The position numbers and the translations under genes are program-made. A stretch of 64,000 nucleotides of DNA from the NCBI GenBank assembly GCA_945865405.1, contig CAMBDS010000012.1, forward strand, positions 2,383-66,382, given 5' to 3'. Position 1 is the stretch's first letter; each line of letters starts with the position of its first letter. This stretch comes from Caldithrix abyssi DSM 13497 (GTDB lineage Bacteria > Electryoneota > AABM5-125-24 > Hatepunaeales > Hatepunaeaceae). Shown here in pieces: positions 17,089 through 42,199 of this stretch. Below the pieces are notes generated by a model, which had not been told where the DNA came from, made no database searches, and saw only the letters and a program-made list of their open reading frames with translations.

Positions 17089-20000
17089 TTACCGAACCAG
17101 AATTGCCTTCTGCATTCCGATAAATGCGCCGGACTGCATCTTGATCAGATAGATACCTGAGGTCTGGCCTTCGGCTGTCCAGGTCAATTCGTACTGACCT
17201 GCCTCATGACGTCCGCCGGCAAGCTGGGCTATCTTGCGACCATGCATGTCCCAGACACTGACCTCTACATCTCCCGGAGTCGGAAGACCAAACTTCAGGG
17301 TCGTACGGGCATTGAATGGATTGGGATAGCTGTTCGAGATGAAATAGTTTTCCGGCATCTCAGCGTGTGGAAGTTCTCTGATCTCGAGTCGACTCGCGGT
17401 GAACGCGAAGTTGTTGTTGGCGGCTGGAACATTGCGTTGTTGTTGAGCCACTACTAACATTCCGCGATCAACTGCTATCACTTTCCAATGAATTGTGATA
17501 TCGCGATCTCTTAGACGCTGTCCGAGTTTCACAAACAATGAATCGTTTGGAACAGGATATTGAGTCCCGCTGAGCGTGTCAAACTTAAGTGTATCCTGAC
17601 GACCCGGTATCCAAGCTCTGAACCAATAGCGCACTGAGTCAATTTCCCACTGGTTCTGGATTGCAGGCTCCCATGAGAAGACGAATGGTCCAAGTGAATC
17701 GGGGCCTTCGAAGTTGTGGTTCATTTCGGGCGTCAACAATCTGAATGCGCCACCGCCACCTGCCCGGTCGGAGGGCAGGTCGTTGATGTCAGGTGTGACA
17801 GTCACACCAAACTGCGTCGAGACAGATTCTCCAGCCCTGTCAGTCGCTGTGACGGTTACAATCGCACTGTCACCGTCAAGTGCGGCTGTGTTATAGTTGG
17901 CGGACAGTGTGCGGAACAGGGCGGTTGTACCGGCGTCAATGCGAAGACCAAACTCGGCGGGACCATCGACAGCGTATGCAAGAACATCTCCAACATCGAT
18001 ATCGCGGAACTTCAAGTTTAATCTTGCAATCTGTAGTTCGTTGAGGTTTGAATCCTCAGCGATTCGGATGTTAGCAATGTTTGGCGGCACAAAGGTCGGC
18101 GCGTCGTTAACTGGTTCGACTGTCACGTGAATGACTTCCCGGACCTCATTGGGGGCCTGAGCACGGTCACGACAATAGACCGTAATATCAAACTCACCAT
18201 TGATGTTAAGGCGAGGTTGTATGCTAACCTCTGTAGTCTGTGCGTTGTACTGAACCTGAAGATCGGCCGGTGCTGGTGCGACAACACCGAAATTGAGCTG
18301 GTCGCCTTGATCGGGGTCAACCCAGTGATTGTCGTTCAAAGTAGCAATTACTACACGATCAGCATCTTCCTGAATGACAACGTCTTCCAGTGGATTTTGG
18401 TCATTGTAAACAGGTGCATCGTTGATGCCGCGTACATTGATGGTCAAGTTGTTGATTTCGTCTGCACCACCGTCAGCATCGGCCATTCGGACAACGGTCT
18501 GGTATTGGCCGATGTCGTCAGCGGTCGGCTGCCAACTAAGAGTCGCTGTACCGTTGCGGTTATCGACGAAACGTGCTTCATCGGGCAATCCACCTCGATT
18601 AGGCATCGTCCAAACAATTTGGTCGCCCTGACTTTCAACGTCAGTACCGTTGAATTGGAGGGCGGCGTCTTGTCGTTCATCGATATTCCATACGAACTGA
18701 CCGTTGTTTTGCGGTGCAGTTATCACCGGAATATCGTTGATCGATCTGAAGCGCATGGTGAATGTGTAATCAGTGATTAGGTCTCGCACCGGAGTTTCCG
18801 AAGGATTCGAGATATTAGCCTCGAAAGCCCCAGCTGCCCCATCAACGCGACGCATATCTCGTTCAGGCGCTCCCTGCTGATTATCATTTGCCCTAAGTGT
18901 AACTCGAACATCACCGAAGAAATTAGCAGGGAGGTCGATCTGCCACCTTGGCACACCTGCGACAACCCGGTGTTCATTGGTCATGTTCGGGTTCATCGCC
19001 TGCGTTATGAAGGTTAAGGCATTTCCATCAGGATCAGTAAAGAGGTTGCGCATATCAGGAATAACAACCAGTCTTGGTGGTGCTCCTGCCATCGCCTGAT
19101 CTTCATCGAACGTGATTAAATCGTCCTGAAAGGGTTGTACCTCAGGAGCCTGATTTACATTCACAATTGTAATCATTACCGATGTGACATCTGTGATATC
19201 ACCGTTGGTTGCCTGGAAGCTGAGTACATAAGGTCTGTTACGGAATGAATTGAAGTTTGTCTCCCAGTGGAAATCGGCGGTGTTGTTGCCGTTATCCGTA
19301 AACTCAACATCACCGGCGTTTTGGGCAATTTCATCTCTGTTAAGGATCGAGAGCCGCATATTGCCCGGAGCATTGGCGATTGTGAAATGGATGTCAACAT
19401 CTTCGCCTTCACTGACCTGAACTTCACCGGGGTCTGACGCAAGAACGACAACGCCTTCGACACGAATACTGAGGAAGTTTATTGCGTCATTCTGCCAATT
19501 GAGTTCCTGGTTGTCTTCGACTTCGACTACAATATCGTCACCTTCATACTCGCGACGCTGACTGCTGTCCCAAACCTTGAGGGTCATTGCCTCACCGTTT
19601 TGGAAACCCTCAACAACAAATCGTGTTTCGGGATCGTCTCCCCATGCGGCAACGCCACAAGTACCGGGTTGTTCGACGATACCGGCTCCGGCGCAGAGAC
19701 CAGCCGTTGTGAAAACACCAATCTCGTCGCCTACTGCGGCATCAACTCCACCGAACTCAAATGGCTCGACAAGAAGGCTGTGATTCTGTGCCACGGACAT
19801 AAAGTCAAATCGACCCTGCTCAACTGAGCCGACACCATTCGGTCGGAAGGTGAACTGCGCCTGATCAGGATCGTCAGAGAAGACAGTAAGAATACCTTCG
19901 TAAGGGGCGTCTTCGGTAGGAGTAAAGGTTACATTGACATCAAGAACTTCGTCCGGTCCAAGAACTACCGCCTGATTGTTAAAATCATGCGTGTAAACGT

Positions 20001-22908: not shown

Positions 22909-23072
22909 CTGTCCTCCCTAACTTTACGGCAACGATTAAGCGAGAATACGCCATTACTTTTCCTCAAGCCTTATAGCAGCATAGCGCCACTTTTGTTTTT
23001 GATCAATCCAACATCTTATCGAAGTTGAGGCAAATACGACCCTCCTTCGACAAGAAGTAGCAAAGTCAGATT

Positions 23073-23101
23073 AAAATACTGCAAAAGGTGATAATTGTCA
23101 A
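23073..23101 (-). promoter_or_regulatory. Candidate sigma70-type promoter for G1
   Basis: The minus strand reads TTGACA-N17-TATTTT inside the 374-bp AT-rich spacer. It would give a leader of about 155 nt. A second perfect TATAAT (23196-23191, minus strand) has no matching -35. Confidence 0.3.
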
Positions 23102-23282
23102 GCAATTTTCACTCAAATACCAGCATTTCTTATGTCAAGATAACGAGAGTTACCTGTAAGCATCTTGACGAATGTCACTTACAAGTAGGTATTATACGGC
23201 AAATTGTGCGAAAATGATGTATTTCTATTCAAATTTGGGCTATTAAATGTCTTACCAGAAATATTACCAGTTAAATAAAAGT

Positions 23283-24350
23283 CTATTTTGTGAGTGTAAG
23301 TGAAATAGTCTTTGAACCAAAAGTGGTTTCCAATCGACAATAATAATTACCAGATGGTATCCAATTAAGATTGACTGGAAGTTGATGAATGCCCGCACTT
23401 AAACCAGAATAATCAGTATAATAAATTTCCTTCCCATCCAATCCTAATACGAAAAGTCTTAAAGAGGTTTCAGTTGGCAGAGCCAATTTTATGACAGTTT
23501 GACCATTAAACGGATTAGGATAGGTTCCCAAGATTTCAAAACTTGTTGGTGCCAGGGGATCAAGTCTTACTGAAACAGGATCGTTCCAGAGCTGAATGGT
23601 CGATCTCCCGTCTATTGAAAAGTGCTCGTCGCCAAGTAATATCTGCCAATTTGTCGAATCGATTGTCAAAAATGAATCAGAAGAGAAGAAACTGAATTGA
23701 AATCCTTCACCGACCGCAAATCCTTCGACTATTCCTTCTGTTTCAGGATCATCTTCATAGGCCCATCCAGATGCTGAGTCGGAATCTATCCATATAAGAA
23801 ATCCTCCTACATCACCTTGAGCAGTACAAATCCCAACTTGATCGCCCGGGTGCGGACCAATTAACATTTCACCCGAGAAGAACTCTGCTGAAGGACAAGT
23901 GAATTTGTGACGATTTATTGTTGGATGTATATCAAAATACGGCTCTTTTGCCGCTAATTCAACTATTAGAAGGCCATTGCTGTGCCAAATTCCATCCCCG
24001 GTAAGTAGATAAATTCGCTCAAGTGATACCTCGTGCTGTTGTTCGGAGTCCCATCTGACAAAGTAAATCGAGTCACCTTCCCTAAATCCTTCGATACTAT
24101 CTCGAGTTAAGGCGTCGTCACCCCAGGCTGCAATCCCCAAAGGAAAGCCAGTTACTGCCACAGACCCACCGCATCGTCCTTCAGGTGTCAACACACCGAT
24201 TTCATCACCACCGCCCCAGATCCCACCCACATAGACTTCTCTTATCAATATGGAGCAGTTAACGTCTGTAGTATCAAAATCAAAGTGATTTGCGTAAGAG
24301 CAGATTGTTAATGAAAACATCAACATGAATGCTGCTAATATCTGTCGCAT
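23283..24350 (-). CDS. Small T9SS cargo protein S (355 aa): two copies of the unassigned module plus the sorting domain
   Basis: Signal peptide MRQILAAFMLMFSLTICSYA/N. One canonical and one degenerate module copy, then the tail GTYPNPFNGQTVIKLALPTETSLRLFVLGLDGKEIY... Only 36 nt separate it from the stop of the upstream giant gene. Confidence 0.85.
   Translation of the reverse strand: MRQILAAFMLMFSLTICSYANHFDFDTTDVNCSILIREVYVGGIWGGGDEIGVLTPEGRCGGSVAVTGFPLGIAAWGDDALTRDSIEGFREGDSIYFVRWDSEQQHEVSLERIYLLTGDGIWHSNGLLIVELAAKEPYFDIHPTINRHKFTCPSAEFFSGEMLIGPHPGDQVGICTAQGDVGGFLIWIDSDSASGWAYEDDPETEGIVEGFAVGEGFQFSFFSSDSFLTIDSTNWQILLGDEHFSIDGRSTIQLWNDPVSVRLDPLAPTSFEILGTYPNPFNGQTVIKLALPTETSLRLFVLGLDGKEIYYTDYSGLSAGIHQLPVNLNWIPSGNYYCRLETTFGSKTISLTLTK
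23286..23549 (-). other. T9SS type A C-terminal sorting domain of S
   Basis: PTSFEILGTYPNPFNGQTVIKLALPTETSLRLFVLGLDGKEIYYTDYSGLSAGIHQLPVNLNWIPSGNYYCRLETTFGSKTISLTLTK. Confidence 0.8.
23586..23939 (-). repeat. Unassigned module, degenerate copy S-M2
   Basis: ...GEMLIGPHPGDQVGICTAQGDVGGFLIWIDSDSASGWAYEDDPETEGIVEGFAVGEGFQFSFF... This copy keeps GD.[IV]G, G.A.EDD and GF..GE but lacks the HF/NHS start. Confidence 0.55.
23952..24287 (-). repeat. Unassigned module, copy S-M1
   Basis: HFDFDTTDVNCSILIREVYVGGIWGGGDEIGVLTPEGRCGGSVAVTGFPLGIAAWGDDALTRDSIEGFREGDSIYFVRWD... Confidence 0.8.
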
Positions 24351-24386
24351 ATTACAGGTCCGAATTTATTTTAGCCGGTTTACTGA

Positions 24387-27300
24387 TTAACGTAGAAGGA
24401 CTAACTTTTCTGTTGCCATCGATTGGCCGACAATAATTTCCAACCAGTAAATACCGGTGGGCAAAGTTACTGCGTCGATAGTATATGTATGCCAACCGGC
24501 TTCAAGCTGAGTCTCGCTCATCGACCAAACTACTCTTCCCTGCAGATCAATAAGGCGAGTCGATGCCTTGCCGAGTATTGGCAAACCAAATCGAATTGTT
24601 GTTCTACTGTTGAATGGATTCGGATATGTCGGGGTTAGGGTAAGAACTGAGGGGATCTCGACCTGAGTTGCTTTGAGGGAAATAGCTTCAAAACCATCGG
24701 TGCTAAACTTGAGGACTCTCTCGTCTGATTCGAATTGGGCGATAACATTATTCACCTTAACCGCAAGAATAGCAAGTAGTTCATCATCAACAGCTCCATC
24801 GATTTCAAAGGTTAATGTATCATCACCTCTAACAATAAGTCCGGCGGGAAGCGAAGACAGTGAGCCACGCCCAACTGTTTGACCACTCCTTTTGGAAACA
24901 GCGACAAGCGATACATCATTTCCAAGAAAGCTTGCGGGAGCATCAGTCACAAGCAAACTCATGTCGGATCCGGTACTTCTCGCTGACTGTAAATTTGGCA
25001 CTATTGAGAGTGGAGCTATTTGTTGGCGGTTCTCCTCATCCTGATACACAAGTTCTGTCCGGCGGTCAACCTTGATCTTATAGCCTTCCCCCGGAATAAG
25101 TGATTCAATTCCGAAGTAGCCGAATCGAGGTGCGATAAAATCACCCACGCCATTTTTAGCCAGGAGAAGCGATTGCATTATCCCCTCGAGCCCAATGCGA
25201 GGGTCAATTGGGTGATCGAGAAGGTAGCCTACTGTGTTCCAGCCCAATGAAAGTGGGATTGGGGTATCGAACTCTATCTTTCTTCCGGTCACAACCAGGC
25301 TATCATCCTCGTTGACATTGACCTGATAACCGTGCAATGGATTCCATGGACCCAAACCGTTATAATCGAAGCGCGTTGTCCAAAATCTTCCCAATCCGTC
25401 CTTTACTATAACAAGGTGCTCCCTATCCCGGATTTCGCTAAACATGATTGGTACTTCAAGTTCAAAAGGTACGACATAGCTCGATATCAAATTCCAGCCT
25501 CTCGCGAGTCTGATCACATGTCGATCTGGATCACGAACAACCAATCGTACCTCAACCTCATCATTATCACGAAAATGGAAATCGCCTGTTACATATTCAA
25601 CTTCCGGGTGGTATTCTTCATTACTGCCAGAATCCCAGATAACGAGTGCCATTGAATCGCCTTGGGAAAATCCGTTGTCACCACCATAGGCTATGAATTC
25701 AGCAGGCGCTTCAACCCATCTGACGACTCCTCCAACTTGACCTCCAGGTGTGATCGCCGCAATTTCACTCCCTACCATGAGATCGCTTCCGTAGAAATCA
25801 ATAGAGAGAACGTGAATGTTTGAACGATTTTCTGTGACTTCAGGGTTGTCAAAATGGCGAAAACCGGAAACAATCTCAAGAGATACGTGCAATGATGCAA
25901 CAGTGCCATCGAAGGACCTGACCATGATATCAGCTTCATAAACATCGTTTTCCTCAGCGCCGGGCGGAACTTCGAAATCTATGGTTAACTCCTGAGTACT
26001 CTCTGACGCTAACTCTCCTTCGATTGGGTTTATCGTGATCCAACTAACTCTCGGGTTTAGTTCAACGCCGAGTAGGTGTTGCGAATCCCTTCCGACAACA
26101 ACTCCCATTATCCAGCGATTGGCGTCCCAACTTCCAGTTACGAAGAGTCCAGTAGGAGGTCCTACAAATTGAAGTTCGGTCTCCTCGATGACGCCACGCT
26201 CTGGATTTGACCGATAAATCTTTGTACCGCCGTCTGGCTCAAGATTGGCCACATATAGCGGAAGATCATCCGGATCGCCCGGATTCCATCCAAAACCATA
26301 TACTCCTGTAAGTCCGTGGCCATCCCATTCCTGGAGCACATCTCCGTCTCGATCTACCAGATACCAAGGCAAATCGTATTCCCCGCACCAAAACGCATCA
26401 GGCTCGGAGCTATAAGCAAGCGCGCGATTGACAGTTAGTGGTGCTCCCGGTTGGACGCGATGGAGTTGCCCATCCACGGTGATCGCATAGATACTGTCAT
26501 TTTGTGAACCGTATAGGTATGTTCCATCCCAAGCAAGATCTCGAAGCCCCCAGCCAACTCGATTTGCTTGTGGTTGCGCAAATTGTCGAACCAGTACTCC
26601 ATCACGATTGAGTACTGCAATCGAGAGTCCTCGTATCGGGTCGCCGCTCGTCACGAAGATCTGGTCAGCAGCATACTCGGCTCCCATTATCCGTTGCAAT
26701 CCGGTTATGGCTGTTAAATCGTGATCGAAATTAATGTCTCCCTGCTGATCACGCAGTGGATCTGTCTCGGTTGTGCCTCTCAGTGACCTGGTTCCACTGT
26801 CCCGGTTGGGCACCTGATTCATAAGACGAAGCACGTACGGAATCGAGATTTCGCTCTCGTTTCGGAGAGTAGTGTTGACAGTCAGACGGTCATTGCCACC
26901 AAGTGCAACCTCAAGCCCCTGATCACTGAAAGTGACCAAAGGACGATAAAGCTCAAAATCGACTCGAATGTTGTCACGAGCACGAAGCACCGTTTCGATC
27001 ACATCGGCTTGGTAACCCGCAAGAGTTGCGGAAAGATTTGTAAATCCTGGAACAAGGCCAATTAGGTTGTAATTTCCTTGCTGGTTAGTCTGGGTTGAAA
27101 CCCGCCCATTTGAAACCTTCACACCGGCTAAAACTTGGCCGTTTTGATCTCGAGCCACTCCAAAAATTTGAGCGGCGACAGGCGGCGCACCTCCCCAGAC
27201 AACAAAGTCATCAAGAAACCAACCAGAGTACCAATCTATGGCATTATCTGTTTTGAACAACCAACGAAACCTAAGCGCCTGACCCTGATAGTCTGAAAGA

Positions 27301-30300: not shown

Positions 30301-33110
30301 AGATTGTATGACCTTGGTGTACCTCCGCGGATAAATTCAGCGGCAATGTGGTACTGATCTCCTGTTTTCTCGGTGAGGTTATAGGTTTCAAGTAGTTCCC
30401 ACGGTTCATCTCGTTCAGGTACTGGAGCAAATCCAATTTCAGGGTTGTCTATTAAATCTCCGCCACCTTGCACGAAGTAATCGATGTAGGCTTGAAAACT
30501 TGTAGGGCGATTGCCGGCGTTCCTAACGGTAAGCGCTACGTTTAACTGTTCGCCAGCCTCAAGCTCGCGCTCAAGGAATTCTGGCTCAACTGTTATCCTG
30601 CTGTCATACTCATCCATAAAGAAAGCACGTTGGTTATTCGGATTTGGCTCGATCCCGAAATTACCACGTAATTCCTCAAATCCAAGAGCAGTAACTACAT
30701 AAGCGTAATTACCTGAAGGAATATCGACAAAACGTACTACCCCATTGATGTCGGAGTTGGCTCGATATACTCCATTTAACACGACCAATGCAGCTGAAAT
30801 CGGTAACTGATCAGCGCTTGTTCTGACAGACGCCGTCAATGATCCGGTTTCCGGAGCGAAGAGACGAAGATCATCGATAAGCCAGCCCGGTCCAACATTG
30901 CTATCATCAGATTTGAAGCGAAACTTAAGCGTTACTGTCTGCCCTGCAAGTGCAGTTAAATCAAAAGACGAAGCGACCCATCCGCCCGAATTACCCGAAA
31001 AACCTGCTCCACCATCAAATACAAATATTGATCGCTCAGGATAACCAGTAGTTGGAACCAAAGTCTCCCAGCGATCACCATTGTCAGGGCTGAATTCGAC
31101 TCGGCCTCCATCCCATCCACCTTCACAGTTGAATTTGTGATTGAAAGTGAGAAATGTATGGGCACCTTCAGGAACGACAACACGTGGAGTCAGAAGCTCA
31201 AAATCTGCAAGATTTGGGTAATTTCCATTGAGTGAGGTCGCCCAAGCTCTCTGGCCATTAGCAGCACCTCCGGCAGGAGCCCCCCATGTCCATCCATTTT
31301 GACCGGGGTTAGCAGTTAAGGCGCCGTTGTTTTGTTCAAAGCCAAGGGTAACTGGTACGCGCCAAAGCCCGGTCGGGGTAACAAAAACCGGATCGGACAA
31401 TTCGGACTCACCATCAGGATCTCGATAGATGGCAGAAATAGCGAATTCGTATTGGGTTCCATTTGCCAATTCAATTGCCGTGTAACGGTGGCTGTTTGTA
31501 AAATCAAATTCTTCATTATTAACATATACCTTAAAGCCAAGTAGGTCGTCTCTTGCGGGCATTTCCTGATATTCGAGTCGAATTAGCTCCTGACGCAATC
31601 TGTAAATTTCATTTAGGATCTCCTCAGTCGGCTTTTGCTGGTTATGCGAGGTAAATGCCGCAATCTGATGCTGTAGCTCCAATCGCCGCCCAAGTAGTTG
31701 TTCATTCCTGTTAGGCATATCCCAAGCGAGAACCACCTCACCATCACCGGCAACTGCACGGAGATTGATAGGACGCCCAAATTCAGGAGTTGGTTCTCTA
31801 AAGTAATTGACGATTCGCCTGATCAGTTCCTGTTTAGTTGCACCTTCGCCATCGACGAGTCCTCCAAACTCTATAGATGAACCAACTGTCCGATAAACCT
31901 CTCCGCTGAATGCTACCATACCGACTGCCGTTTCGTCAGCATCACGAAAAGTTAAGACCTCTTGAGCATCTTCCATAACTCCAAGATGATCCATATAGTC
32001 ATTATCTTGAGCGCTATACTCATCAAAGACCAAACCCTCGGTGAAACTGCCATCAACACCTGCAATAGGCCCACTCGCCGAGTGACCATCGATGATACCT
32101 TCAATTCTAAATAGCGGATGAGCATCGGTGACGGGATCACCAGTCCAGAAATCTGATCCCTCAAGATAGATATTTCCACCGGATCGAGCGTAACCAGCCA
32201 GAATTTCGCCTTCAGCGCCGGTCAAGCGATGATAATTCCTGCCGTTTTGACCGTAATTACCAAGATTTACAAATACAGCCTCAAATTCACTCAGGTCATC
32301 TGGCAATTGCTGGTTCAAACGACTTTGCAAAAATGTGACCGAGTGATCTTCTGCATTAAGAGCAACTACCTGAGCGGCCCCAGATGGAGTTGAAGCACCG
32401 CCATTCCACACGAGAAAGCTACCTGGCCCGTGATCACTTATCAGGTAAGCACTTCCAGATTCGATTGCACTACCTTCACCATCATACCGAATCGTCAGCC
32501 CTTCACTACCATCAAAATTCTCAAGACCAACAGTACCGATGCCGACGTTAAAGTCATCGCCGATAGTTTTGAATTGTAAAACTACATCGCCATCCGGCTT
32601 GAGCACTATCTGCATAGTGATAGTGTTTTGTGGCGAGTGCCCGTTTTCGTTAACCTCGGGATAATCCTGATATTGTACTACAAAATTTCCTTCGCGGTGC
32701 CCAAAATAGACCGATCCTTCCCCCCAATCGGTACGAGGAGCAAGATTTTTCCAGTAGATGGCAACAATGTTATCAGGGGAATTATGGTTGGGAAGTTCCT
32801 GGTTGGCAGATCGACCATATTCGTCGGTTGGGCCAAAGCCTATCATGCCGTTGGAGCTTACGTAGACATTGTCGTAGAGGCGGCCGAAGTAAGGGAAGTC
32901 AAAACCGATGGCGATTGGACCGACAAATGTGTTGTCTTCCAGTTCGACAATCTGTTCACCGATATCTTCAATTTCGAGCCAACGGTAATCAGTTTCGTAT
33001 GAAAGGTACGGATTACCCTCATCTCTGCCAGGCATCGGATTACCGTTTGCAGAGAGCGAGAGTAGATTGAGCAGCAACAGTCCGGCAAGGAGCTGTGTAA
33101 AGCGTCGCAT
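24387..33110 (-). CDS. Giant secreted surface protein G2 (about 2907 aa from the preferred start), T9SS cargo; function unknown
   Basis: Preferred start is the ATG at 33110 (MRRFTQLLAGLLLLNLLSLSANG signal peptide, GAGGA 5 nt upstream), not the track start at 33233. Layout in order:
- a nidogen-like N-terminal region (FDFPYFGRLYDNVYVSSNGMIGFG; low confidence)
- an alpha/beta-looking region
- an FN3 with a helical insert
- two copies of a large lectin-like + CarboxypepD_reg-like + Ig + unassigned 240-aa block
- extra CarboxypepD_reg-like domains and FN3s
- one divergent copy of the 115-aa module
- two GWN...GY repeats
- the tail TYPNPFNSRTTIRFGLP... Confidence 0.9.
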   Translation of the reverse strand: MRRFTQLLAGLLLLNLLSLSANGNPMPGRDEGNPYLSYETDYRWLEIEDIGEQIVELEDNTFVGPIAIGFDFPYFGRLYDNVYVSSNGMIGFGPTDEYGRSANQELPNHNSPDNIVAIYWKNLAPRTDWGEGSVYFGHREGNFVVQYQDYPEVNENGHSPQNTITMQIVLKPDGDVVLQFKTIGDDFNVGIGTVGLENFDGSEGLTIRYDGEGSAIESGSAYLISDHGPGSFLVWNGGASTPSGAAQVVALNAEDHSVTFLQSRLNQQLPDDLSEFEAVFVNLGNYGQNGRNYHRLTGAEGEILAGYARSGGNIYLEGSDFWTGDPVTDAHPLFRIEGIIDGHSASGPIAGVDGSFTEGLVFDEYSAQDNDYMDHLGVMEDAQEVLTFRDADETAVGMVAFSGEVYRTVGSSIEFGGLVDGEGATKQELIRRIVNYFREPTPEFGRPINLRAVAGDGEVVLAWDMPNRNEQLLGRRLELQHQIAAFTSHNQQKPTEEILNEIYRLRQELIRLEYQEMPARDDLLGFKVYVNNEEFDFTNSHRYTAIELANGTQYEFAISAIYRDPDGESELSDPVFVTPTGLWRVPVTLGFEQNNGALTANPGQNGWTWGAPAGGAANGQRAWATSLNGNYPNLADFELLTPRVVVPEGAHTFLTFNHKFNCEGGWDGGRVEFSPDNGDRWETLVPTTGYPERSIFVFDGGAGFSGNSGGWVASSFDLTALAGQTVTLKFRFKSDDSNVGPGWLIDDLRLFAPETGSLTASVRTSADQLPISAALVVLNGVYRANSDINGVVRFVDIPSGNYAYVVTALGFEELRGNFGIEPNPNNQRAFFMDEYDSRITVEPEFLERELEAGEQLNVALTVRNAGNRPTSFQAYIDYFVQGGGDLIDNPEIGFAPVPERDEPWELLETYNLTEKTGDQYHIAAEFIRGGTPRSYNLVTTAGDFGSDTSHLYVMNRAGDVVNRLQLGNLNNNNMDGWGTRDLAYDGTFLYGSSTTAGELVRINPAAGGVLGREILTPLGVARAVAWIHEENSFWIGDRDDTWYKYRRIRVGESVLADRVTDHGLTGVVGMAWNPSDPDGACLYIHNQESDNGGAAIYRFNPRTRELIREIETATEEEGFAGGAFTTYLYDTQTWMLGVVIQGPDADVLKLYELWPKQNWVKTSPLVVQLAGGAETQLQVSFDARGRVDSELSANIELYDFMGGRVTNVPVTLLISGGSCSLEGVVSLDGEGALENVALTLNGVEANPDNEGNYGFFDLIPGLFQLTATLDGYDAFISDSFSISPNENLRRNFELAHIHRGILSGHINSAHNENGWLEGVDVAAINEDDNSVYGVGTTDAEGYYEITLPEGTYGVTPRLSAWHADRVNNIEIQDGGITELNFTMDDRLPMGSIRVNGNFDDRVAVIWDPPGTIGRTDSLRYDNGPINNAVFLRGRDDVIAVRFEPEDLYDITAVQIYMFRRGDFGFNGWQGWAAVPIQFKMWEEDPETGLPGEEIWSDYDQFRVATQWVTVRPADIRFRRGAFYVGWHQDMVRQVATFQATGLDGHLDHPDVTHLRIDGQWHRFNGLPGDNMIRAVVYSYREDAEERLAPRPLREVGDIGFNNEALSDRIEIARGPSIDSQLLASDASPPVEFVENEDPGRDPPNGYKILVDGQIVAEGDFPNYRYNFIEDTNGEDEEHTFQVVAVYDENIEMESDEIVGKYNMAPGVPTNIIVTNNGPNYTIRWNAPARNADNVQNCTDYAGCRVIINGQEVGRVNAPTLTFTAEMPEGDEGWYDLSLIAYDEVPNYSVPVTARVPLGLSQYFSFDGGAPPAVFTAAPFGKWARTSSLVNGPGSAHSGTFVWGTNQPSPRHYENNANWTLTTISEYLITSQNARVEFFHYLSAEAGRDGGQFLVSVDGGAYQLLTPIGGYPDQTVAAFQNRPAFTGEIPAWQIVSFDLSDYQGQALRFRWLFKTDNAIDWYSGWFLDDFVVWGGAPPVAAQIFGVARDQNGQVLAGVKVSNGRVSTQTNQQGNYNLIGLVPGFTNLSATLAGYQADVIETVLRARDNIRVDFELYRPLVTFSDQGLEVALGGNDRLTVNTTLRNESEISIPYVLRLMNQVPNRDSGTRSLRGTTETDPLRDQQGDINFDHDLTAITGLQRIMGAEYAADQIFVTSGDPIRGLSIAVLNRDGVLVRQFAQPQANRVGWGLRDLAWDGTYLYGSQNDSIYAITVDGQLHRVQPGAPLTVNRALAYSSEPDAFWCGEYDLPWYLVDRDGDVLQEWDGHGLTGVYGFGWNPGDPDDLPLYVANLEPDGGTKIYRSNPERGVIEETELQFVGPPTGLFVTGSWDANRWIMGVVVGRDSQHLLGVELNPRVSWITINPIEGELASESTQELTIDFEVPPGAEENDVYEADIMVRSFDGTVASLHVSLEIVSGFRHFDNPEVTENRSNIHVLSIDFYGSDLMVGSEIAAITPGGQVGGVVRWVEAPAEFIAYGGDNGFSQGDSMALVIWDSGSNEEYHPEVEYVTGDFHFRDNDEVEVRLVVRDPDRHVIRLARGWNLISSYVVPFELEVPIMFSEIRDREHLVIVKDGLGRFWTTRFDYNGLGPWNPLHGYQVNVNEDDSLVVTGRKIEFDTPIPLSLGWNTVGYLLDHPIDPRIGLEGIMQSLLLAKNGVGDFIAPRFGYFGIESLIPGEGYKIKVDRRTELVYQDEENRQQIAPLSIVPNLQSARSTGSDMSLLVTDAPASFLGNDVSLVAVSKRSGQTVGRGSLSSLPAGLIVRGDDTLTFEIDGAVDDELLAILAVKVNNVIAQFESDERVLKFSTDGFEAISLKATQVEIPSVLTLTPTYPNPFNSRTTIRFGLPILGKASTRLIDLQGRVVWSMSETQLEAGWHTYTIDAVTLPTGIYWLEIIVGQSMATEKLVLLR
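24390..24656 (-). other. T9SS type A C-terminal sorting domain of G2
   Basis: IPSVLTLTPTYPNPFNSRTTIRFGLPILGKASTRLIDLQGRVVWSMSETQLEAGWHTYTIDAVTLPTGIYWLEIIVGQSMATEKLVLLR. Confidence 0.85.
24675..24989 (-). repeat. Possible 13th, highly degenerate module copy immediately before the G2 sorting domain
   Basis: DMSLLVTDAPASFLGNDVSLVAVSKRSGQTVGRGSLSSLPAGLIVRGDDTLTFEIDGAVDDELLAILAVKV keeps the order SLL[IV] / G.[DE][IV] / G..G / [IV]..GDD / [IV].G...[DE]. All signature residues are weakened. Confidence 0.3.
25536..25859 (-). repeat. Unassigned module, divergent copy G2-M1
   Basis: RHFDNPEVTENRSNIHVLSIDFYGSDLMVGSEIAAITPGGQVGGVVRWVEAPAEFIAYGGDNGFSQGDSMALVIWDSGSNEEYHPEVEY... Confidence 0.65.
25869..27710 (-). 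repeat. G2 internal duplication, block B (about 614 aa)
   Basis: Block B runs FDGGAPPAVFTAAPFGKWARTS...GWFLDDFVVWG, then AAQIFGVARDQNGQVLAGVKV...QQGNYNLIGLVPGFTNLSATLAGY, an Ig-like domain, and RVGWGLRDLAWDGTYLYGS...HGLTGVYGFGWNPGDPDD...IYRSNP...WIMGVVVGR. Confidence 0.75.
29469..31352 (-). repeat. G2 internal duplication, block A (about 628 aa)
   Basis: Block A runs LGFEQNNGALTANPGQNGWTWGAP...GWLIDDLRLF (jelly-roll/lectin-like), then GSLTASVRT...NGVVRFVDIPSGNYAYVVTALGF (CarboxypepD_reg-like), an Ig-like domain, and MDGWGTRDLAYDGTFLYGS...HGLTGVVGMAWNPSDPDG...IYRFNP...WMLGVVIQG. It is collinear with block B. Confidence 0.75.
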
Positions 33111-33193
33111 CAGAATCCTCGTTCGATCGAAATTGACACACCGGCAAATGATTACGATACTACCGGTGAAGAATGTAAATGTCCTAACTACTA

Positions 33194-33307: not shown

Positions 33308-33338
33308 AGATAGGGGAGCATGAGATGCCCCCCTATCT
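33308..33338 (-). terminator. Rho-independent terminator downstream of the 2944-aa gene
   Basis: AGATAGGGG...CCCCTATCT is a 9-bp stem that extends into an inner GCAT/ATGC stem. On the minus strand it is followed by AGCUCUUUUCCCUUUC. Confidence 0.65.
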
Positions 33339-33364
33339 TTATACAATACCCGAACCAAGAAGCG

Positions 33365-36300
33365 CTACTTCAACATTGCACCTTTGACAATGTGACGCTC
33401 ACCATTTACTTGCAATACGAACAAGTAGATACCAGCTGAATTTCCTATGCCATCCCAGGAGAATTCATGCGTACCAGCTTCAAATCGCCCTTCAGTGATA
33501 GTTGCGATTGTCCGTGCGTGCATGTCATAGACATTCAGCTTCACATCTCCGGCATTGGGTAAGGAGAAACTAAGTTTGGTCTCGGGATTGAACGGATTTG
33601 GGTAATTTTGACTAAGAGATATTTCGGTCGGAAGTAATCTCTCTTCACCCGGTGCACTGAGTGGGGGGACGATAACGGTGCGTCTCTGGTTTGACTCACG
33701 CACCACCTGACCGTCTGAGACCTCTACCCACCATCTTATTTTGAGCGAATCTTCAAGACCAACCAAGGCGACTAAAGTATCCAGGCCAGAGATTGAGAAT
33801 GAAGTATCGGCTAACAGGCCTGAACGGAAGGTGCTGTCGATTGGTGCATCGATAAGTGCGAAGACAATCGAGTAGCGCAATTGATCGTTATCGTCATCAG
33901 AGGATCTGTTCCATCTAAAAGTACCTCGATAGTTTGCAAGGACTGCCATATCGACCGGCAAACGTAGATCGAAGCCATTCGGGTTGTCGTTAACTGGCCT
34001 CACAGTTACCCTGAACTGCTGGTTGACCTGCGCAGCCCCATCAGTCGCCGTTACTGTAATGACTACTCCGGCAGCCAGGTTGAAGTTGGCAATAGGGTTT
34101 ATGAACAATATATTACCATTCTCCAAACCCATCCCTAACTGCTGCGGAGCCCCGGCAAAGCCAAACTGCAATGCGTTATTATCTGGATCGGTAAAAAATT
34201 GCCTCAAGTCGGCAATATCAAACCTACCTTGATCTTCATCGACATCTACATCACCAATTTGGCCTTGTCGAACAGGAGGTCTGTTGACATTATTGACTGT
34301 AATCTCAACATTTATTACGTCAGTTAAACCGGATGCATCGCGTGCCTGGAAGACACCAACATAGGGATCTTGTCGTGCATCATTAAAGCCGGGAGTCCAG
34401 ATGAAGTTGGCGCGACCGTCACCAATGTCATTGAACTGCCAACCCTGAGGCATGCCACCGTCATCGATCAACTGCCAACCAATATTATCATCGTCTGGGT
34501 CAGCAGCAAGAAAGGCGACACGAAGCTCTGAGTTCTCGTCAACATTAACTCGAAATACTGCTTGATCACTCGGCTGTGAAATTACGGGAGCACGATTAAG
34601 GTTTGAGACAGTAATTTCGACCACGATTTCATCCCTGCCATTGTCTGCATCCGTTGACCTGAAGCGAGGAGTATAAGCCTCTCGACGTGCGTCGAATGGG
34701 ACATTCCAATCGAAGCGAGCCATATTGTTCTGGTTGTCGGTAAACTGCCACCCGTTCGGCAACCCACCAGCATCAACTAACTCCCAGACCGAATTGCCAC
34801 CATCAGGGTCGGTTGAGCGGAAATCGACTATCAGTCGTTGTCCTTCTTCTACTGCAACTCTATGTACATCAGCATTTGCCGGTTCAGTGATGACGGGATT
34901 TCGATTGACGTTTGCGACCGAAATTGCTAAACGCAATTGATCGTTGGCACCCGCAGCATCCGTAGCAACAACCAACGGAGTATAAGCTTGACGGCGAGCG
35001 TCGAACGGCGGCGTCCAAAGCAATGTCGCCGTACCATCCCTATGATCTGTGAATTGGAAGCCGTTTGGCATACCACCAGCATCTGGCATTGTCCAGACGA
35101 TTCCGTCCGCATCCGCATCATCGGCACCGAAGTCGATTCTTAGCTCAGCATTCTCATTTACGTTAATCTGGAAGTTATCTTCACGGGTAGGTTCTGAGAT
35201 TTCGGGAGCACGATTGAAATTATTAATGGTAATTGTTACTTCGAGATCGGCAACAGCTCCAGCTCTATCCTCCACCCGGAACACTGGTCGATAAACTCCT
35301 GCATCTTCGAAATCAGTAGCCCAAACAAAGGTACCCTCTGGACCTTCATGGTCGAAGGTTGCCCCTTGATTCGTTACGCGATCCGGTATCCGAAGGAAGA
35401 TCTCGAGTTCATCTCCTTCATGAGCAAGATCGAAATCGTCAGCGTGAAGGGCGAACTCGATTCGCTCACCTTCACGGACTGTAACTTCACGCACAGGATT
35501 GACCCAGAACGGTTGGTCATTCAATGGATTGACTGTCAAGACGAAAGTATCTTCAATCCGGAATTCATTGTCTTCTGCACTGACTACAATATTAAACGCG
35601 CCGTTGATCCGATCGGCGGGAAAGACAGAGAGGATGCCATTGTTGATTGCAGCACCAAGAGCGTCATCTGCGATGACTCCATAGACGACGTTATCACCAT
35701 CAGGGTCATTGAAGAACTGTGAAAGAGTGAAGAGGTCGGTTCTGTTTGCATCTTCATCGATATCAGTGTCCGGAAGCCCTTGAGCTCTTGGCGGTCGATT
35801 GACGTGGTCTATGCGGAATGAGACCCTTGCATCAGCCGATTCAGCGTTATCGTTAATACGGAAAGTAGCTGCATAATTACCTGCATCGTCAAATGACGGG
35901 CTCCATGTAAATGTAGCTGTTCCGTCGTGATGGTCTGTCAGGGTTGCTGCCTGTGGCAGGTTCGAATTGATCAAAGAAATAACAAGATTGTTATTGTCCG
36001 GATCAGAACCAGTTACAACGAAACGTACTTCACTGTTTTCACGCCCATTAACCTGTTCAGGGACGTCGTTCCAAACTGGCGGACGATTAACATTGGTGAC
36101 TGTCACCATAACGGCAGAGCGAGTCGTTAGCTCTCCGTCACTGACAACCAGTTCACCTCTATACTCACCAGCGTCTGTGAAACCTGTCATCCAGAAAAAG
36201 GATCCACGACCGCTGCCGTGATCCTCAAGAGTGGCTGACTCGGGGAAATTGCCTCGTTCGAAAGTAAGAGTTAGTCCATCTGAGTCGATATCAGATGCCT

Positions 36301-39300
36301 GTACGTCAAATTCGACAGAAGCATCTTCGTCGATCTCAATAACCTCGGCAGGTACATTCTCCCAAATAGGAGCGTCGTTAACCGGCAATACCGTCACTGT
36401 AAACGATTCGCCGATTTCATCGTCACGATTAGCCTCGCGCTCTATTGGATTCAAGAGAGCGGTTGTTCTTAGGTGACGGGAGGCTTGAGAATTCGCCGAG
36501 GATGAAAGCCCTTGTAATGCGTTCGCACGAAAAGCGGCTATAGCGACATTTCTTCCGTCATCTGCCGTAACTGTGACTTCACCATTACCAAAGAAGTTCA
36601 TCGCAGGGTTTATCCAAAGAACCCCTTCTTCATCGATGGCAGGCCTCAAGTCTTCGTTTCCAGAGACATCAAAGCTGAGTTGGTCGCTATCGGGGTCAGA
36701 GAAGACATCATTTAGATCAGCAACACGAGTCGCACCAGCGTCTTCATTGATTTCCAAATCATCGATCGGGTCAACGACGACCGGGGCTCTGTTTACATCG
36801 ACTACTGTCGCTTCTACATCAACTGACACGTCGCTCATAATCTCGTTGTCGCTTAAGAGATGGAAACGAATTACGTAGCTTCCTGCATCGTTAAACATCG
36901 GATTCCATACAAAGGAGGCAGTGCCGTCCTCATGATCGATAAACTCCGGAGCAATTTCTGGATTGGAGCCGATAAATTCAAACCCCATCTGGAATGCATC
37001 GCCATCGACATCCATTCCGACGACTTCAAAGCGTAGTTCTGTTCCCTCATCGAGACGAATTTCAGCCGGATAATCAACAAATTCCGGAGGAGCATTCACA
37101 TTAGATACAACTATTGTGACTTCGATCTCGGCTTCCATTTCACCATCATTAACCACAAATAATGGAGTGTATTCACCTGCATCGAGATAGTCGGTATCCC
37201 AAGTGAACGTCCCGGTACCGTCACCGTGATCAACGAATGTTGCTTGAAGCTCTAACTCACCGTTGATCATTCGCAACGAGAGTTGATCTTGATCTGAATC
37301 GGTTGCAGTCAACGTAAACTCTACGCGCGCTCCCTCAGAGCCTTGTACCATCTCAGGAGCATCAACCCAAACAGGAGCGTGATTCGGGTTAAATCCTGAG
37401 CCAATCAATGTGACTACAACTCTCGGTTCATTTCTGTCATTCGACATGACGATAAGTTCATCGTTGTAATCAATAGGTTCTTCAGGAGCGAAAATCACAG
37501 AGTAAGTTACTGCTTCTCCAGGATTTACAGTAACTTCGCCTTCGAAGTTGATGCTGAAAGGAGCATCGATATCACCGATGCTTAAAATCCTCAGAGCAGC
37601 AGTACCTCGATTTGTAATGACAAACTCCCAGCTCGCAGATTCTTCGACCGAGACTCTACCGAAATTGTGCGCAAGTTGAAGATCAATTTCCGGCTGTGGA
37701 AGAGTGTAAAGGTCGAGTGTAAGCACAGTAAAACCGTTCGGAGAGTACTCTGCAGGTCCCTCTTCGATAATCGATTCGACTCCTGAATACTCACGAGAGG
37801 CTGAGGCATCCCAATAACGGAACATCATTCTCTCGCCATTGGCGAAACCTTCAACCGGCTGGGTGTCAAGATCATCACCCCAAGCGCCGAACCCGAATGG
37901 CTGGTCGCCTAATTCTTGAAGGATTGCAACTCCAGCGCAGATATCGTTTGTTGTGAAAGCAGCAACTTCATCGCCAATCGCTAATGGCTCCTCATTAAAT
38001 ATAGCTGAAAGCACCAATATTGAATGATTAGCGTTTGTAATGGTATAGAAAAAATGGCCTTGACCTTCTGGCGTTGTCGAGCTCAACGTTAATACCGAGA
38101 ATGCATCTCGATGGTATATTCCTTCACCTTCATCATAGCTCGGAATCGCTTCAAATTCTGCGCGAAGCTCAGGAAGCCAAATTCGATAAAATAGAGCTTC
38201 GCCTTCGGTAAGACCTTCTACAATATCTCCTGTATTGGCATCGTCACCCCAGGCCGCCAAGCCGAACGAATACTCTTCTATACGAACCGATCCTGCGGTA
38301 ACGCCATTGGTCGTAAAAACTCCAACTTCCGCCCCTATTGGCAATCTTTCGCCATCGAGAGTCGCATCATCGATCAACAACGACATATTGCCGTCCGTCT
38401 GTTGAAACCGCCAATGGAGCGGGGATGCGACTGCTGAACCTACCAAAGAAATCTGAACCTGACCGTTGTCAGGATCATTGGAATCGAACATAAGAGTTGA
38501 TTGATAATCCCTGACTTCGGAAGGAGCGAATGTAACGTCAAGGATCATTGCCTCACCAACACCTACCTCAAAGCCTGCATCTGGTTCGATTTCGAAGCCA
38601 TCTCCATCAAAAGTCGGTGCTTCAACAGTGAGGATACTCCCACCGACATTAGAGATGGTCAGACGCCATGTTTCCCGTTCCCCAACTCCGATTTCACCAA
38701 ACAAATGTCGATTACTTGAAAGTACAATTTGCGGAGGAGATGGAATTACGCCAATTCCACTCAAATCAACCACGACTTCGTGATTGCCGAATGCATCTGA
38801 GGTTATTGTTAGGACACCAGCAAACTCACCAGCTTCCTCAGGATTAAAAGTTACTTCGATCTCAGCAGAGGCTTCAGATGCAATAACAAACTGACCGTCG
38901 AAATTCGTCACGAACGGACCATCGCTTACGACCATATCCTCTATTGTCAACACGCCATCACCAATGTTTGAAATGCTAAGCATCGCCGAGCGAGATTCAC
39001 CGCGCAACACAGTACCAAAGTTGAGATAATCTGCTCCGAGCGCAATCAAAGGTGTCGCTTCTCGTCGTGAGTTAAGTGAAACAACAGCAAATCCATTGGA
39101 TTGATAACGGCCATCACCGACCTCATAGTCAGCGATTGCGCCGTATTCCCTACCTGAAGATTGATCCCAAATTCTCCACTCGATTTCTTCGCCTTCACGA
39201 AACCCATCAGGGCCTTCCTGGTTGTTATCTTCTCCCCAAGCTGCTACACCAACGGGCCATTCGTCTGTCAAGAGTGTCGCCCCCGCACAGAATCCGGAGG

Positions 39301-42199
39301 GTGTAAAGACCGCAACTTCATCACCCGCAACAAGGCGATTACCTTCAAAGCTGGCATCCTCTAGAATGATTGACATGTTTTCGGCGGTGATAACAAACTC
39401 GAAGTGTTCACCTTCCGGGATTGCGCGACCTGATAACCTAATCATCGTTTCCGGTTCGTCTGGATCATCTGTGAAGAGAGTCGCTGTTCCGCCAAATTCA
39501 CCTACCTGATCTGGAGCGAATGTTACCAAAATTTCAAAGCCTTCATTTGGTGCAACAACAATACCCTCTTGGAAATCAGTGCTAAAACCAGCACCTTGAA
39601 CGACCACTCGGGAAACATTCAGGTTGGCAAGTCCAACGTTCATGCCTTCGATGTTAACTGTCCGCTCTTCGCCAACAAAGAGAGCCTCAAAATCAATGAT
39701 ATCGTTGGCAATCTCAATGTTTGGTAATCTTTCGAGCACACCCCGACCGATTACTCGAATTTCATATTCTGGAACGTCTGCATCATTCGAGAAAACAGTT
39801 AGTATTCCATTGTAATCCATTTCTTCTTGTGGGGAAAATACAATGGGAAGCATTGCCGAAGCTCCAGGATCAATTGCCATTCCTTGATCAATATCCGCCA
39901 TGAATGCGCCAATATTTGATGCTACGTGATCAATCTCAAGGGGCAGCTCACCAAAATTTGAAACTCTTAACTCAGCTCGTACTCCTTCTCCGATAAAAAC
40001 TTGACCAAAATCGTGAGCAGGTGTATCGAGATTTGGTGTGTAACCGCCAGCGGCCTCTACGAAAATATTTGCGCCACGTTCGCGCCCTGATCCCCAAAGC
40101 TCAATGATGTAAACTGGTGTTTCAGGATCGTTCGAATTCACACGAAGAGTAGAATTAAATTCACCCACCTCCTCCGGCGAAAATGAGACTGTAAATTGTG
40201 AGCTTTGGCCGCTATTGAGCGAGAACTCGTCAGGTTCAAATGAATAATATTCAGAACCTGCGCCGCCTACAATTTCCAGATTGCCCTCTAGGCGAGAGAC
40301 ACCATCATTAGTAATTTCAAATCTGTTTTCGACGGAATTCCCGATGGCAATTTCACCGAAATCCAAAGTGTTCACACTTACAGTAATAATTGGAGGTTCA
40401 GGAGTACCTCTTCCTGAGAGAGGTATTTCAAATTCTGGAGAATCAGGGTCGTTGGAGCTGATCAACAGGGTCCCATCATAGTCAACGAAATCGGTAGGTT
40501 CGAAAGTAACCTCGATTTCTATGGATCCGCCTGGTTGAATTACGGTTTCAAGAGCATCTTCTGGCTGGCGTTGATTACCACCAGCTAAGTTTAGTATCGT
40601 CAAGCCATCCCGTGCATATGCTAATTCCCCCTGGATAATATCTGGACGGGTTGCAATCTCTCTTCGACTGGAAAGATCCCAATACTTTAATGTTATGGCT
40701 TCTCCATTTCGCAAACCATTGATTCCAACCTCATTAATGTCATCACCCCAGGCAGCCACTCCGACAGCTTCACCAGGATCCGTGATTATCACAGCTCCCA
40801 CACAAAGACCCGCGGGGCTGAAGGCACCAATTTCATCGTCAACATCAAGTGCCTCGCCATTCAACAATGATTCAAGTATTAGAAGTGAATGATTTCCATC
40901 TGTTTCAGCAAATCTGAAATGAGGACCGTCCGGTAATTCCTCTTCGTAATCAGTGGTAAATACTCCATCGTCGGTTTCAACACCAGTTATTCCCAGTGGT
41001 TGATCTCCACTGTTCATTACAGTAACTGTAACTGTTCGGATATTCCCAACTACGATATTTCCAAAGTTGATATTATCTGGATCTGCTTCAATATTGGGTT
41101 GAGGAGGTATGAACCCAGTGCCGCTGAGTGAAACTTCGACTTCTGATTCGTCTGGGTCATCTGAAACTACAAATAAAGTAGCTGCAAAATTCTCTTCCGA
41201 TCGTGGGTCAAAACGAACTTGATAAACGGCATCATTCCCGGCACCGATTGTCCTTTCACCGTCGAAGTTGACCGTAAATCCATCACCTTCGATATTCATA
41301 GAACTGATGGTCAGGTCACTATTTCCAGTATTGGCGATAGTTAAATCCCTGGAAGTAGGATGGCCTAGCTCGACTTCACCAAAGTTGAATTGTAGAGGAT
41401 TGACTGAGATATCAGGAATGCGTTCTATAGTCCCATTTCCAATGAGTCTTATCACGACATCGCCATGTTCAGCATTAGAAACTATTGTTAAAGTTTCAGA
41501 GTAATTTCTTTCTTCAACAGGACTGAAAGTAACTGTCACAGTAGATCCTTCGCCAGGTTCAAGCGACAAACCGTTTTCGGGAAAATTTGTTGTAAATTCT
41601 CCAGAACTTGTCGTCATGCTTTCAATCTCAAGCGGGTCAATGCCACCATTTCCAATTGTGATTACCCATGCTTGAGATTCATCAACAAGCACATTTCCGA
41701 AATCGTGCGACATCTGATCGCCGCCACCCTGCCCAAGAACGTTATCGCCTTCCCGAATTACAACGACAGGTGGTCCTTCCAATGTTCCTTCCAAGCTGAG
41801 GATCGTAAACGCGTCTCGCTCGTAACCTTCGGGACCAAAATCGAATGTAGGGTTCGCAGTAAATTCGTGGTTAGTTGTCCGATCCCAAAAACGGAATGCA
41901 AACCGCTCACCAGCTCTGAACCCGTTAACCCCTGCCTGATCTTGATCGTCGCCCCAGGCGGCGATGCCAATCGACTCCCCGCCATTCTGTTCATAAACTA
42001 AAGCACCAGCGCAAACTCCACCTGGAGTGAAGACTCCAACCTCATTACCTGCTTCGATAAATTCTCCGTTTACTCGAGATTCCTCGACTAAAAGAGAGTG
42101 GTTGCCTTGATTTACATCAAAACGGAAGTGTTGTCCAAAAGCATTCGTAGATGCGATTGCAATAAGGACAAGTGCATAAATTGTAATAGTTCGGCGCAT
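33365..42199 (-). CDS. Giant secreted surface protein G3 (about 2944 aa from the preferred start), T9SS cargo; paralogous in architecture to G1
   Basis: Preferred start is the ATG at 42199 ([23 protein letters not shown] signal peptide, AGAGGAA upstream), not the track start at 42379. Five copies of the 115-aa module are interleaved with about 10 'choice-of-anchor D'/ASH-type Ig domains. These are followed by 11 cadherin-like/He_PIG-type repeats, a pre-CTD domain, and the tail [32 protein letters not shown]... Confidence 0.9.
   Translation of the reverse strand: [2944 protein letters not shown]
33368..33634 (-). other. T9SS type A C-terminal sorting domain of G3
   Basis: [89 protein letters not shown]. 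Confidence 0.9.
33980..37387 (-). repeat. Array of 11 cadherin-like / He_PIG-type Ig repeats in G3
   Basis: Units of about 95-138 aa, each closing in NVNAPP, VNRAP, VNDAP, NVNRPP, VNRPP, LNDQP, FNRAP, VNRNP, LNRAP, VNRPP or VNDNP. Recurrent internal pattern: ...F.V.A.D.D.D.L........P..A.F.DHGDGT..F.W.P...DAG.Y. Confidence 0.7.
37712..38056 (-). repeat. Unassigned module, copy G3-M5 (directly tandem to M4)
   Basis: [83 protein letters not shown]... Confidence 0.8.
38081..38416 (-). repeat. Unassigned module, copy G3-M4
   Basis: [80 protein letters not shown]... Confidence 0.8.
39071..39406 (-). repeat. Unassigned module, copy G3-M3
   Basis: [81 protein letters not shown]... Confidence 0.8.
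40583..40921 (-). repeat. Unassigned module, copy G3-M2
   Basis: [82 protein letters not shown]... Confidence 0.8.
41789..42130 (-). repeat. Unassigned module, copy G3-M1
   Basis: [83 protein letters not shown]... It starts one residue after the predicted signal-peptide cleavage site. Confidence 0.8.

Follow-up and report, generated by a model that had tools for sequence, protein, structure and literature searches.

Type A cargo of the T9SS (type IX secretion system), as represented by the gingipains and HagA of Porphyromonas gingivalis, combines a Sec signal peptide with a C-terminal β-sandwich sorting domain that bears a PNPF-type motif. In this organism, RgpA, Kgp, and HagA also have a repeated accessory module in common, namely the cleaved-adhesin repeats. 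The stretch of DNA analyzed here—64,000 nucleotides of contig CAMBDS010000012.1 (GenBank assembly GCA_945865405.1) from an uncultured bacterium, in the following called the window—shows a resembling arrangement: four consecutive genes, A to D, encode proteins that look like T9SS type A cargo by their sequence features and that share a repeated all-β domain, which we call NOV. Unlike the gingipains, A–D are devoid of a peptidase domain, and NOV has no sequence match to named families or to the PDB. We propose that A–D are probably nonenzymatic, anchored surface proteins of an adhesin or coat type, whose shared NOV domain binds a ligand or other NOV copies.

Further described systems resemble A–D in part. 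SprB-type gliding adhesins of Flavobacterium are likewise giant, repetitive, T9SS-secreted surface proteins, and one NOV-bearing representative protein (P0038) carries 44 SprB repeats. However, SprB repeats (PF13573) are not found in A–D at E ≤ 0.01, the sorting domains of A–D match the type A model whereas the one of SprB is of type B, and the window holds no gliding genes. TfsA and TfsB of Tannerella forsythia are encoded by adjacent genes for large, Ig-rich T9SS cargo and are thought to build one surface structure, a surface layer (S-layer); the block described here differs by its four genes of very unequal size. With choice-of-anchor D proteins (NF012200; HYDIN/ASH/DUF1573), A and D share only the spacer Ig domains, to which NOV is unrelated by profile. 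On the level of the single domain, carbohydrate-binding modules and cohesin–dockerin modules come closest in kind—small, all-β, repeated, shuffled among unrelated secreted proteins, and with conserved aromatic and acidic residues—but none of the solved ones is matched by NOV, be it in sequence or in fold.

NOV, a domain common to all four proteins

One unnamed domain links all four proteins and is the main one among what the original prediction had left as unassigned modules. NOV comprises ~112 residues and is present in 13 copies: five in A, four in D, and two each in B and C (Table 1). An iterated profile from the block's own copies scores them at 48 to 143 bits and detects nothing else when the window is translated in all six frames. 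The consensus of 343 instances reads HF.F..Td.NHSiLv.eAtldGe.L..GDEIGVFTP.GLCAGa.vv.e.g.p.GlAAWGDD..TeeidGFr.GE.f.FR.WD.sa..Ey.A.aey..Gp..f..NGftvl.L. Hereby, the best conserved positions are G42 and G69 (99%), followed by G98 (94%), E88 (92%), F70 (91%), W81 (89%), and C40 (84%), and the conserved residues are mostly acidic or aromatic (D29, E30, W58, D60, D61, E74, W81, D82, and E88). In ~13% of the copies, Leu or Val takes the place of Cys40. All four cysteines of A (residues 63, 466, 971, and 1421; window ~42011, 40802, 39287, and 37937) are Cys40 of four NOV copies, each being a lone, unpaired cysteine in a secreted domain.

The AlphaFold2 model, calculated from a 60-sequence alignment, predicts an eight-stranded all-β domain with a predicted local distance difference test (pLDDT) score of 96.6 and a predicted template modeling (pTM) score of 0.89. 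Pfam and NCBIfam return no match at E ≤ 5, precomputed Pfam lists of orthologues hold nothing in the NOV region, and the best E-values of profile searches against the PDB are 0.13 and 1.8. Structure searches with Foldseek likewise give no match at E ≤ 1e-3, neither in the PDB (best E 0.079; TM ≤ 0.41 among the top-ranked matches) nor in BFVD (best E 0.031; TM ≤ 0.47). Judged by this comparison with the PDB and BFVD, NOV may represent a new fold. Literature searches found no published description of the domain.

Several candidate explanations of NOV were rejected. Homology to the neighboring Ig domains or to the C-terminal sorting domain (CTD) is assigned a probability of 0.4% and 1.9%, respectively, by hhalign. 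A histidine-brace copper site, which the His at the start of the domain might suggest, is at odds with the Gln or Asn that precedes this His in the mature protein and with the internal copies, which have no free N-terminus. A reactive cysteine of the thioester-adhesin type lacks its partner Gln and is not kept in the copies with Leu or Val at position 40.

The spread of NOV was followed by running a profile exhaustively against 1.84 billion representative proteins. At E ≤ 1e-3, 6712 proteins match; 3007 of them reach E ≤ 1e-10, and 514 reach E ≤ 1e-30. Single representatives contain as many as 15 copies. A word-indexed search with the alignment of the 13 copies had found no homologues—a limit of sensitivity, since the exhaustive search found them in such number. 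Named genomes with NOV include metagenome-assembled genomes (MAGs) of Calditrichota/Ca. Electryoneota and Gemmatimonadota. A CTD ends 112 of the 150 top NOV representatives and 74 of the 90 NOV-bearing metagenome open reading frames (ORFs) with a complete C-terminus, and some proteins (e.g., C, P0094, and P0125) consist entirely of NOV copies and the CTD. In proteins outside the block, NOV is joined to SprB repeats, LVIVD, Laminin_G_3, β-helix, SusE-like, FG-GAP, and InlB-B-like repeats. It is also found on a gingipain-type C25 peptidase with propeptide (L093, 1621–7506) and on an α/β-hydrolase-domain protein with FG-GAP repeats (L119, 2245–9780) and is, therefore, not restricted to nonenzymatic cargo. 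Among 60 full-length representatives, chosen for a first NOV copy at most 60 residues from the N-terminus, the first NOV starts in the listed cases a few residues past the signal-peptide cleavage site. Gln immediately precedes His1 of NOV in 22 of these cases, which fits the pyroglutamate "Q-rule" for secreted proteins of Bacteroidetes.

When the NOV consensus sequence served as query for metagenomes, 29 of 79 loci contained at least two adjacent, co-oriented NOV genes. Four of the metagenome loci (L123, L162, L119, and L146) show a three-gene pattern of a NOV protein of ~1200 to 2500 residues, a small single-NOV protein of ~240 to 270 residues, and a third NOV protein of 340 to 2867 residues, which resembles the order B, C, D. 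A scan of genome contigs with protein C gave 79 loci, almost all of which share the CTD motif only; six carry NOV.

Sorting signals and proposed architecture

On inspection of the translations, all four N-termini look like signal peptides of the Sec type, in line with what had been claimed for each ORF: each pairs basic residues with a hydrophobic core and shows a cleavage motif made of small residues (e.g., MRRTITIYALVLIAIASTNAFG, then Q), with Gln as the next residue in A and D. At the other end, the 89-residue tails of A–D align gap-free with invariant YPNPFN, LP, AG, and G.Y motifs and close with Lys or Arg. Measured against the curated cut-offs (27 bits for PF18962 and 23 bits for TIGR04183), the CTDs of B (36.3 and 31.8 bits) and D (28.0 and 30.5 bits) are above both. 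A CTD profile of our own, whose seed contains the tails of A–D next to those of related proteins, scores the four at 54 to 105 bits (A, 94; C, 54).

Between these signals, choice-of-anchor-D/HYDIN-ASH Ig domains and cadherin-like/Big_9/tandem-95 modules prevail in A and D. NF012200 reaches 331.2 bits over nine stretches in A and 184.1 bits over five stretches in D (cut-off 45), and matches neither B nor C. The signal peptide of A is followed by the NOV copies, interleaved with ~11 choice-of-anchor-D Ig domains; next come cadherin-like/Big_9 modules, ~11 in number, and an Ig-like domain that precedes the CTD. D is built in the same sense, with its NOV copies interleaved with six such Ig domains and followed by cadherin-like/Big_9 modules and the CTD; the gaps that our own repeat profiles left in both proteins are further cadherin-like/Big_9 modules. 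C, in turn, consists of signal peptide, two NOV copies, and CTD. A–D are all strongly acidic (D+E 13–17%, K+R 5–7%). The domain vocabulary is confirmed for Ig-like (choice-of-anchor D/HYDIN-ASH), cadherin-like/Big_9, MAM, and CarboxypepD_reg, while fn3 shrinks to a weak match in B below its cut-off (E 0.0075; 16.9 versus 25 bits).

For P. gingivalis, it is established that cargo loses its CTD by cleavage and becomes attached to anionic lipopolysaccharide (PMC8545088, PMC4804311). Because of this model, we infer by analogy that Sec would export each of A–D, that the T9SS would recognize the CTD of each, and that the CTD would be cleaved, with the new C-terminus being joined to anionic lipopolysaccharide on the outer membrane. 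Such a C-terminal anchor would place the cadherin-like/Big_9 modules near the membrane and the arrays of choice-of-anchor-D Ig domains and NOV outward. A and D might thus be pictured as long, very acidic stalks punctuated by NOV copies, and NOV would also cap the mature N-termini of A, C, and D—the tip farthest from the anchor. C would be the bare unit, and B a different multidomain passenger with a cassette at its end. NOV itself would be the shared payload. Its occurrence as sole payload in small proteins, its shuffling among passengers, its tie to the CTD, and its conserved acidic and aromatic residues fit an accessory binding module. NOV might recognize an external ligand that serves all four proteins, and a glycan, bound with Ca2+ assistance, is the most plausible candidate. 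It might also bind a glycan of the cell itself, or NOV–NOV binding might join the four proteins into one coat or adhesive layer.

The assignment as T9SS cargo, already made in the original prediction, draws support from the signal peptides and the type A CTDs. Several points weigh against the proposed reading, though. The CTD of A stays below the PF18962 cut-off (20.4 versus 27 bits) and is not listed by TIGR04183, and the one of C is borderline, falling just short of the TIGR04183 cut-off (22.9 versus 23 bits). The claim of type A tails on all four, hence, stands in full for B and D, and the gap-free alignment speaks for it throughout; judged by sequence, we accept all four as type A CTDs, with this cut-off caveat for A and C. 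T9SS core genes (PorK/L/M/N, Sov, PorU, and PorV) were not found in the 64-kb window. Neither the PDB nor BFVD offers a structural analogue from which a function of NOV could be borrowed. Some 600 residues of B are without any assignment and might hide an activity, and the fixed position of NOV beside the CTD in the C-terminal cassette of B could mean that it takes part in secretion or anchoring.

The GWN module and the C-terminal cassette of B

The two NOV copies of B enclose two copies of a ~84-residue module, GWN (B residues 2524–2708; window 24987–25541), with the consensus ..GWNLIS...P......F.....LIIVKD..GRFY.P......I..W....GYQIK. GWN has no Pfam match, no PDB sequence match, and an NCBIfam match at chance level (E 0.26). 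Among the NOV proteins examined (271), 119 have GWN, nearly always paired between two NOV copies. The complete arrangement NOV-GWN-GWN-NOV-CTD ends 77 of these 119 proteins—47 with an extra NOV in front and 30 without—and a further 17 end in at least GWN-GWN-NOV-CTD. The last 490 residues of B are, hence, a conserved cassette that is found on many unrelated passengers.

This placement immediately before the CTD raises an alternative, namely that NOV or the whole cassette is a secretion or attachment helper: as a spacer, or as a surface where shuttle or attachment proteins of the T9SS dock, it might keep the passenger competent for CTD processing. It would suit such a role that NOV is almost confined to CTD proteins and that the passengers of NOV proteins elsewhere are unrelated, including the C25 peptidase and the α/β-hydrolase protein. 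However, the first NOV of A, C, and D lies at the far N-terminus, up to 2800 residues away from the CTD, and more copies are found inside the stalk; moreover, proteins made of NOV and CTD only would be left without a payload. We, therefore, regard a helper function as unlikely.

Gene block, conservation, and genomic surroundings

The four co-oriented ORFs were found again on the minus strand with the coordinates and sizes that had been predicted (Table 1); together they span 24,447 nt, or 38% of the window, and their ATG starts agree with the starts and lengths of orthologues. A search for the same arrangement in relatives, which had been proposed as a check, recovered the A-B-C-D order in one relative: a contig of run SRR13131472 keeps NMO, A′, B′, C′, D′, aldehyde dehydrogenase, epimerase, and Wzi in this order, with protein lengths of 2942 (A′), 2905 (B′), 355 (C′), and 1934 (D′) residues—all within five residues of the proteins described here. 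As order and lengths recur at 47 to 60% identity, A–D are real, constrained genes; the metabolic neighbors reach 71 to 80%. The same holds for the single domains. All 13 NOV copies have a positional counterpart in the relative with 40 to 74% identity, which is the best match there for 12 of the 13, while paralogous copies average 34%; the copies are, hence, old and individually constrained.

Table 1 Features of the gene block and its surroundings. Residue numbers refer to the respective protein.
Feature	Window position	Strand	Residues	Identity to relative	Remarks
Gene A	33365–42199	minus	2944 aa	57% (P0011, full length)	ORF open upstream to TTG at 42379
Gene B	24387–33110	minus	2907 aa	60%	ORF open upstream to 33233
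Gene C	23283–24350	minus	355 aa	47%	smallest member
Gene D	17089–22908	minus	1939 aa	59% (P0019)	
NOV copies in A			24–136, 427–538, 932–1042, 1262–1372, 1382–1495		
NOV copy 1 of A	41792–42130	minus			reference copy, modeled
NOV copies in B			2419–2523, 2709–2812		
NOV copies in C			22–132, 139–254		
NOV copies in D			27–138, 466–576, 801–916, 1033–1148		
GWN copies in B			2530–2613, 2615–2693		
C-terminal cassette of B	24390–25856	minus			NOV, GWN, GWN, NOV, CTD
CTD of A			2856–2944		
CTD of B			2819–2907		
CTD of C			267–355		
CTD of D			1851–1939		
Terminator-like hairpin after A	33308–33338	minus			14-bp stem, then T-rich tail
Terminator-like hairpin after D	17030–17063	minus			14-bp stem, 12 G-C pairs
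C–D spacer	22909–23282	minus			374 bp, 36% GC, AT-rich, precedes D
NMO-family gene	42380–43411			71%	upstream flank of block
Aldehyde dehydrogenase	15547–16971			75%	downstream flank of block
Epimerase				80%	
Wzi				60%	

A and B are separated by a spacer of 254 bp, and B and C by a gap of 36 bp. Given these spacer sizes, the longer AT-rich spacer before D, and the positions of the two terminator-like hairpins, the layout is compatible with A, B + C, and D as three transcription units, as far as sequence can tell. The original prediction had likewise proposed three units and had named the hairpins, the AT-rich spacer, and the NMO-like and aldehyde dehydrogenase flanks, all of which were recovered. 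A single σ70-like match is located inside the C–D spacer (23101–23073). By contrast, the label "island" given to the block is not supported, since the GC content is unremarkable, housekeeping genes surround the block, and the block is syntenic in the relative.

Directly downstream of D, on the same strand, follows a surface-polysaccharide locus (5466–16971) with genes for aldehyde dehydrogenase, NAD-epimerase, Wzi, Wzz/GNVR, a Wzy_C/O-antigen-ligase-like protein, a Wzx-like flippase, GT2, GT9, and a Bac_transf priming transferase, and this adjacency is kept in two relatives (L080 and L082). A general link of NOV genes with polysaccharide loci was rejected, with only three isolated matches in 79 loci.

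That A–D adjoin such a locus, that their genes are adjacent, co-oriented, and conserved as a set with a module in common, and that multi-gene NOV clusters are common would also suit S-layer-like coat subunits, with NOV making lateral contacts, rather than adhesins for foreign surfaces. Yet, the four proteins show no similarity to known S-layer proteins other than a weak 24.6-bit match to the CarboxypepD_reg stretch of an anammox S-layer model, and beads-on-a-string proteins of 2000 to 3000 residues appear more fibril-like than lattice subunits. Such a lattice seems improbable to us, and the reading as stalk-like, anchored surface proteins with NOV as binding module is preferred.

The seryl-tRNA synthetase (SerRS) of the window has its named relatives, at 56 to 60% identity, in Ca. 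Electryoneaceae and Calditrichota, both of which belong to the Fibrobacteres–Chlorobi–Bacteroidetes (FCB) superphylum (PMC9324843). All gene-like long ORFs of the window (~45) lie on the minus strand—an unusually complete bias for 64 kb—and the cumulative GC skew drops steadily along its whole length (1–64000). No tRNA gene and no Rfam family was found in it. Upstream of the block, two ORFs (45477–46235, 252 residues, and 46425–47522, 365 residues) match no Pfam family at E ≤ 1e-5, and the latter overlaps the start of a Peptidase_MA_2 gene (47404–48408). The relative (L081, 1844–5774) has, between NMO and the gene for the periplasmic-binding protein, a 921-residue CTD protein without NOV copy and a rubrerythrin, neither of which is present in the window.

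Protein B and the search for enzymes

B differs from the other three in its domains: a signal peptide is followed by a NIDO-like region, a class I glutamine-amidotransferase (GATase1)/ThuA-like fold, the weak fn3, two MAM units, and the C-terminal cassette. The NIDO-like start is itself a weak match (E 0.042), while homologues carry PF06119. Each of the two MAM units consists of MAM/choice-of-anchor-J, CarboxypepD_reg, and propeller-like DUF6923; BLAST found no internal duplication in B. Proteins of ~2906 residues in several metagenome loci were rejected as orthologues of B despite their equal length.

Residues ~262–478 (window 31677–32327) yield an α/β model of moderate confidence (pLDDT 70.8; pTM 0.80), which Foldseek places in the class I glutamine-amidotransferase/ThuA/IFT52-N fold (E 8e-6 to 1e-3). 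Top matches are IFT52-N (GIFT), Agd3, the noncatalytic domain of GH42, and ThuA-like proteins, the best ones being noncatalytic members. The nucleophile position reads YLEG[SG]D, without Cys, across five aligned homologues. B was, hence, rejected as a class I glutamine amidotransferase—the fold matches, but the catalytic Cys is absent—and the earlier statement that the block has no catalytic domain is therefore not overturned. The same module recurs in small CTD proteins (P0152, P0153, and P0155).

Searches of A–D against Pfam and NCBIfam matched no enzyme, toxin, peptidase, or type I secretion system (T1SS) family, nor any feature of polymorphic toxins or RTX-type T1SS adhesins (toxin domain, TANFOR N-domain, or RTX repeats with a T1SS signal). 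The sequences of the PDB, queried with whole B, gave no match. The C-termini of all four are occupied by the CTD and not by a toxin domain. These searches and the one fold search agree with the original prediction, which saw no enzyme, toxin, or T1SS signature. Two stretches of B, residues 1470–1700 (28011–28703) and 2056–2420 (25851–26945), have no Pfam match even at E ≤ 1. An enzyme or toxin hidden in B or another of the four, which would make the block degradative or antagonistic instead of adhesive, could be sought in these stretches or in the amidotransferase-like fold, and NOV does sit on real enzymes elsewhere; but with a cysteine-free nucleophile position in all homologues, noncatalytic best matches to a model of only moderate confidence, and no toxin or peptidase profile matched, we consider this very unlikely.

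Conclusion and outlook

The gene block alone is ordinary—large adhesin-like T9SS cargo in a MAG of the FCB superphylum—and by itself will not surprise a specialist. New to annotation are NOV, GWN, and the NOV-GWN-GWN-NOV-CTD cassette. In many genomes of uncultured FCB-superphylum bacteria, giant T9SS cargo accounts for a large part, and its usual annotation does not go beyond "hypothetical" or "T9SS sorting domain-containing"; NOV and GWN as defined families would annotate thousands of such proteins.

NOV is also a good target for experiments, being small, probably soluble, and found alone with just an anchor. It is, hence, suited to asking how attachment works in T9SS organisms outside the Bacteroidota, be it to particles, to one another, or to the organism's own coat. 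There is a small chance that NOV has a new fold and serves to bind GWN or further copies of itself, such that co-secreted T9SS cargo would be hooked together in a manner reminiscent of cohesin and dockerin. If this were true, the scaffolds (A and D), the small anchor unit (C), and the cassette passengers (B and, elsewhere, peptidases and hydrolases) would form a modular surface coat, and such a coat would be spread over many bacteria of the FCB superphylum.

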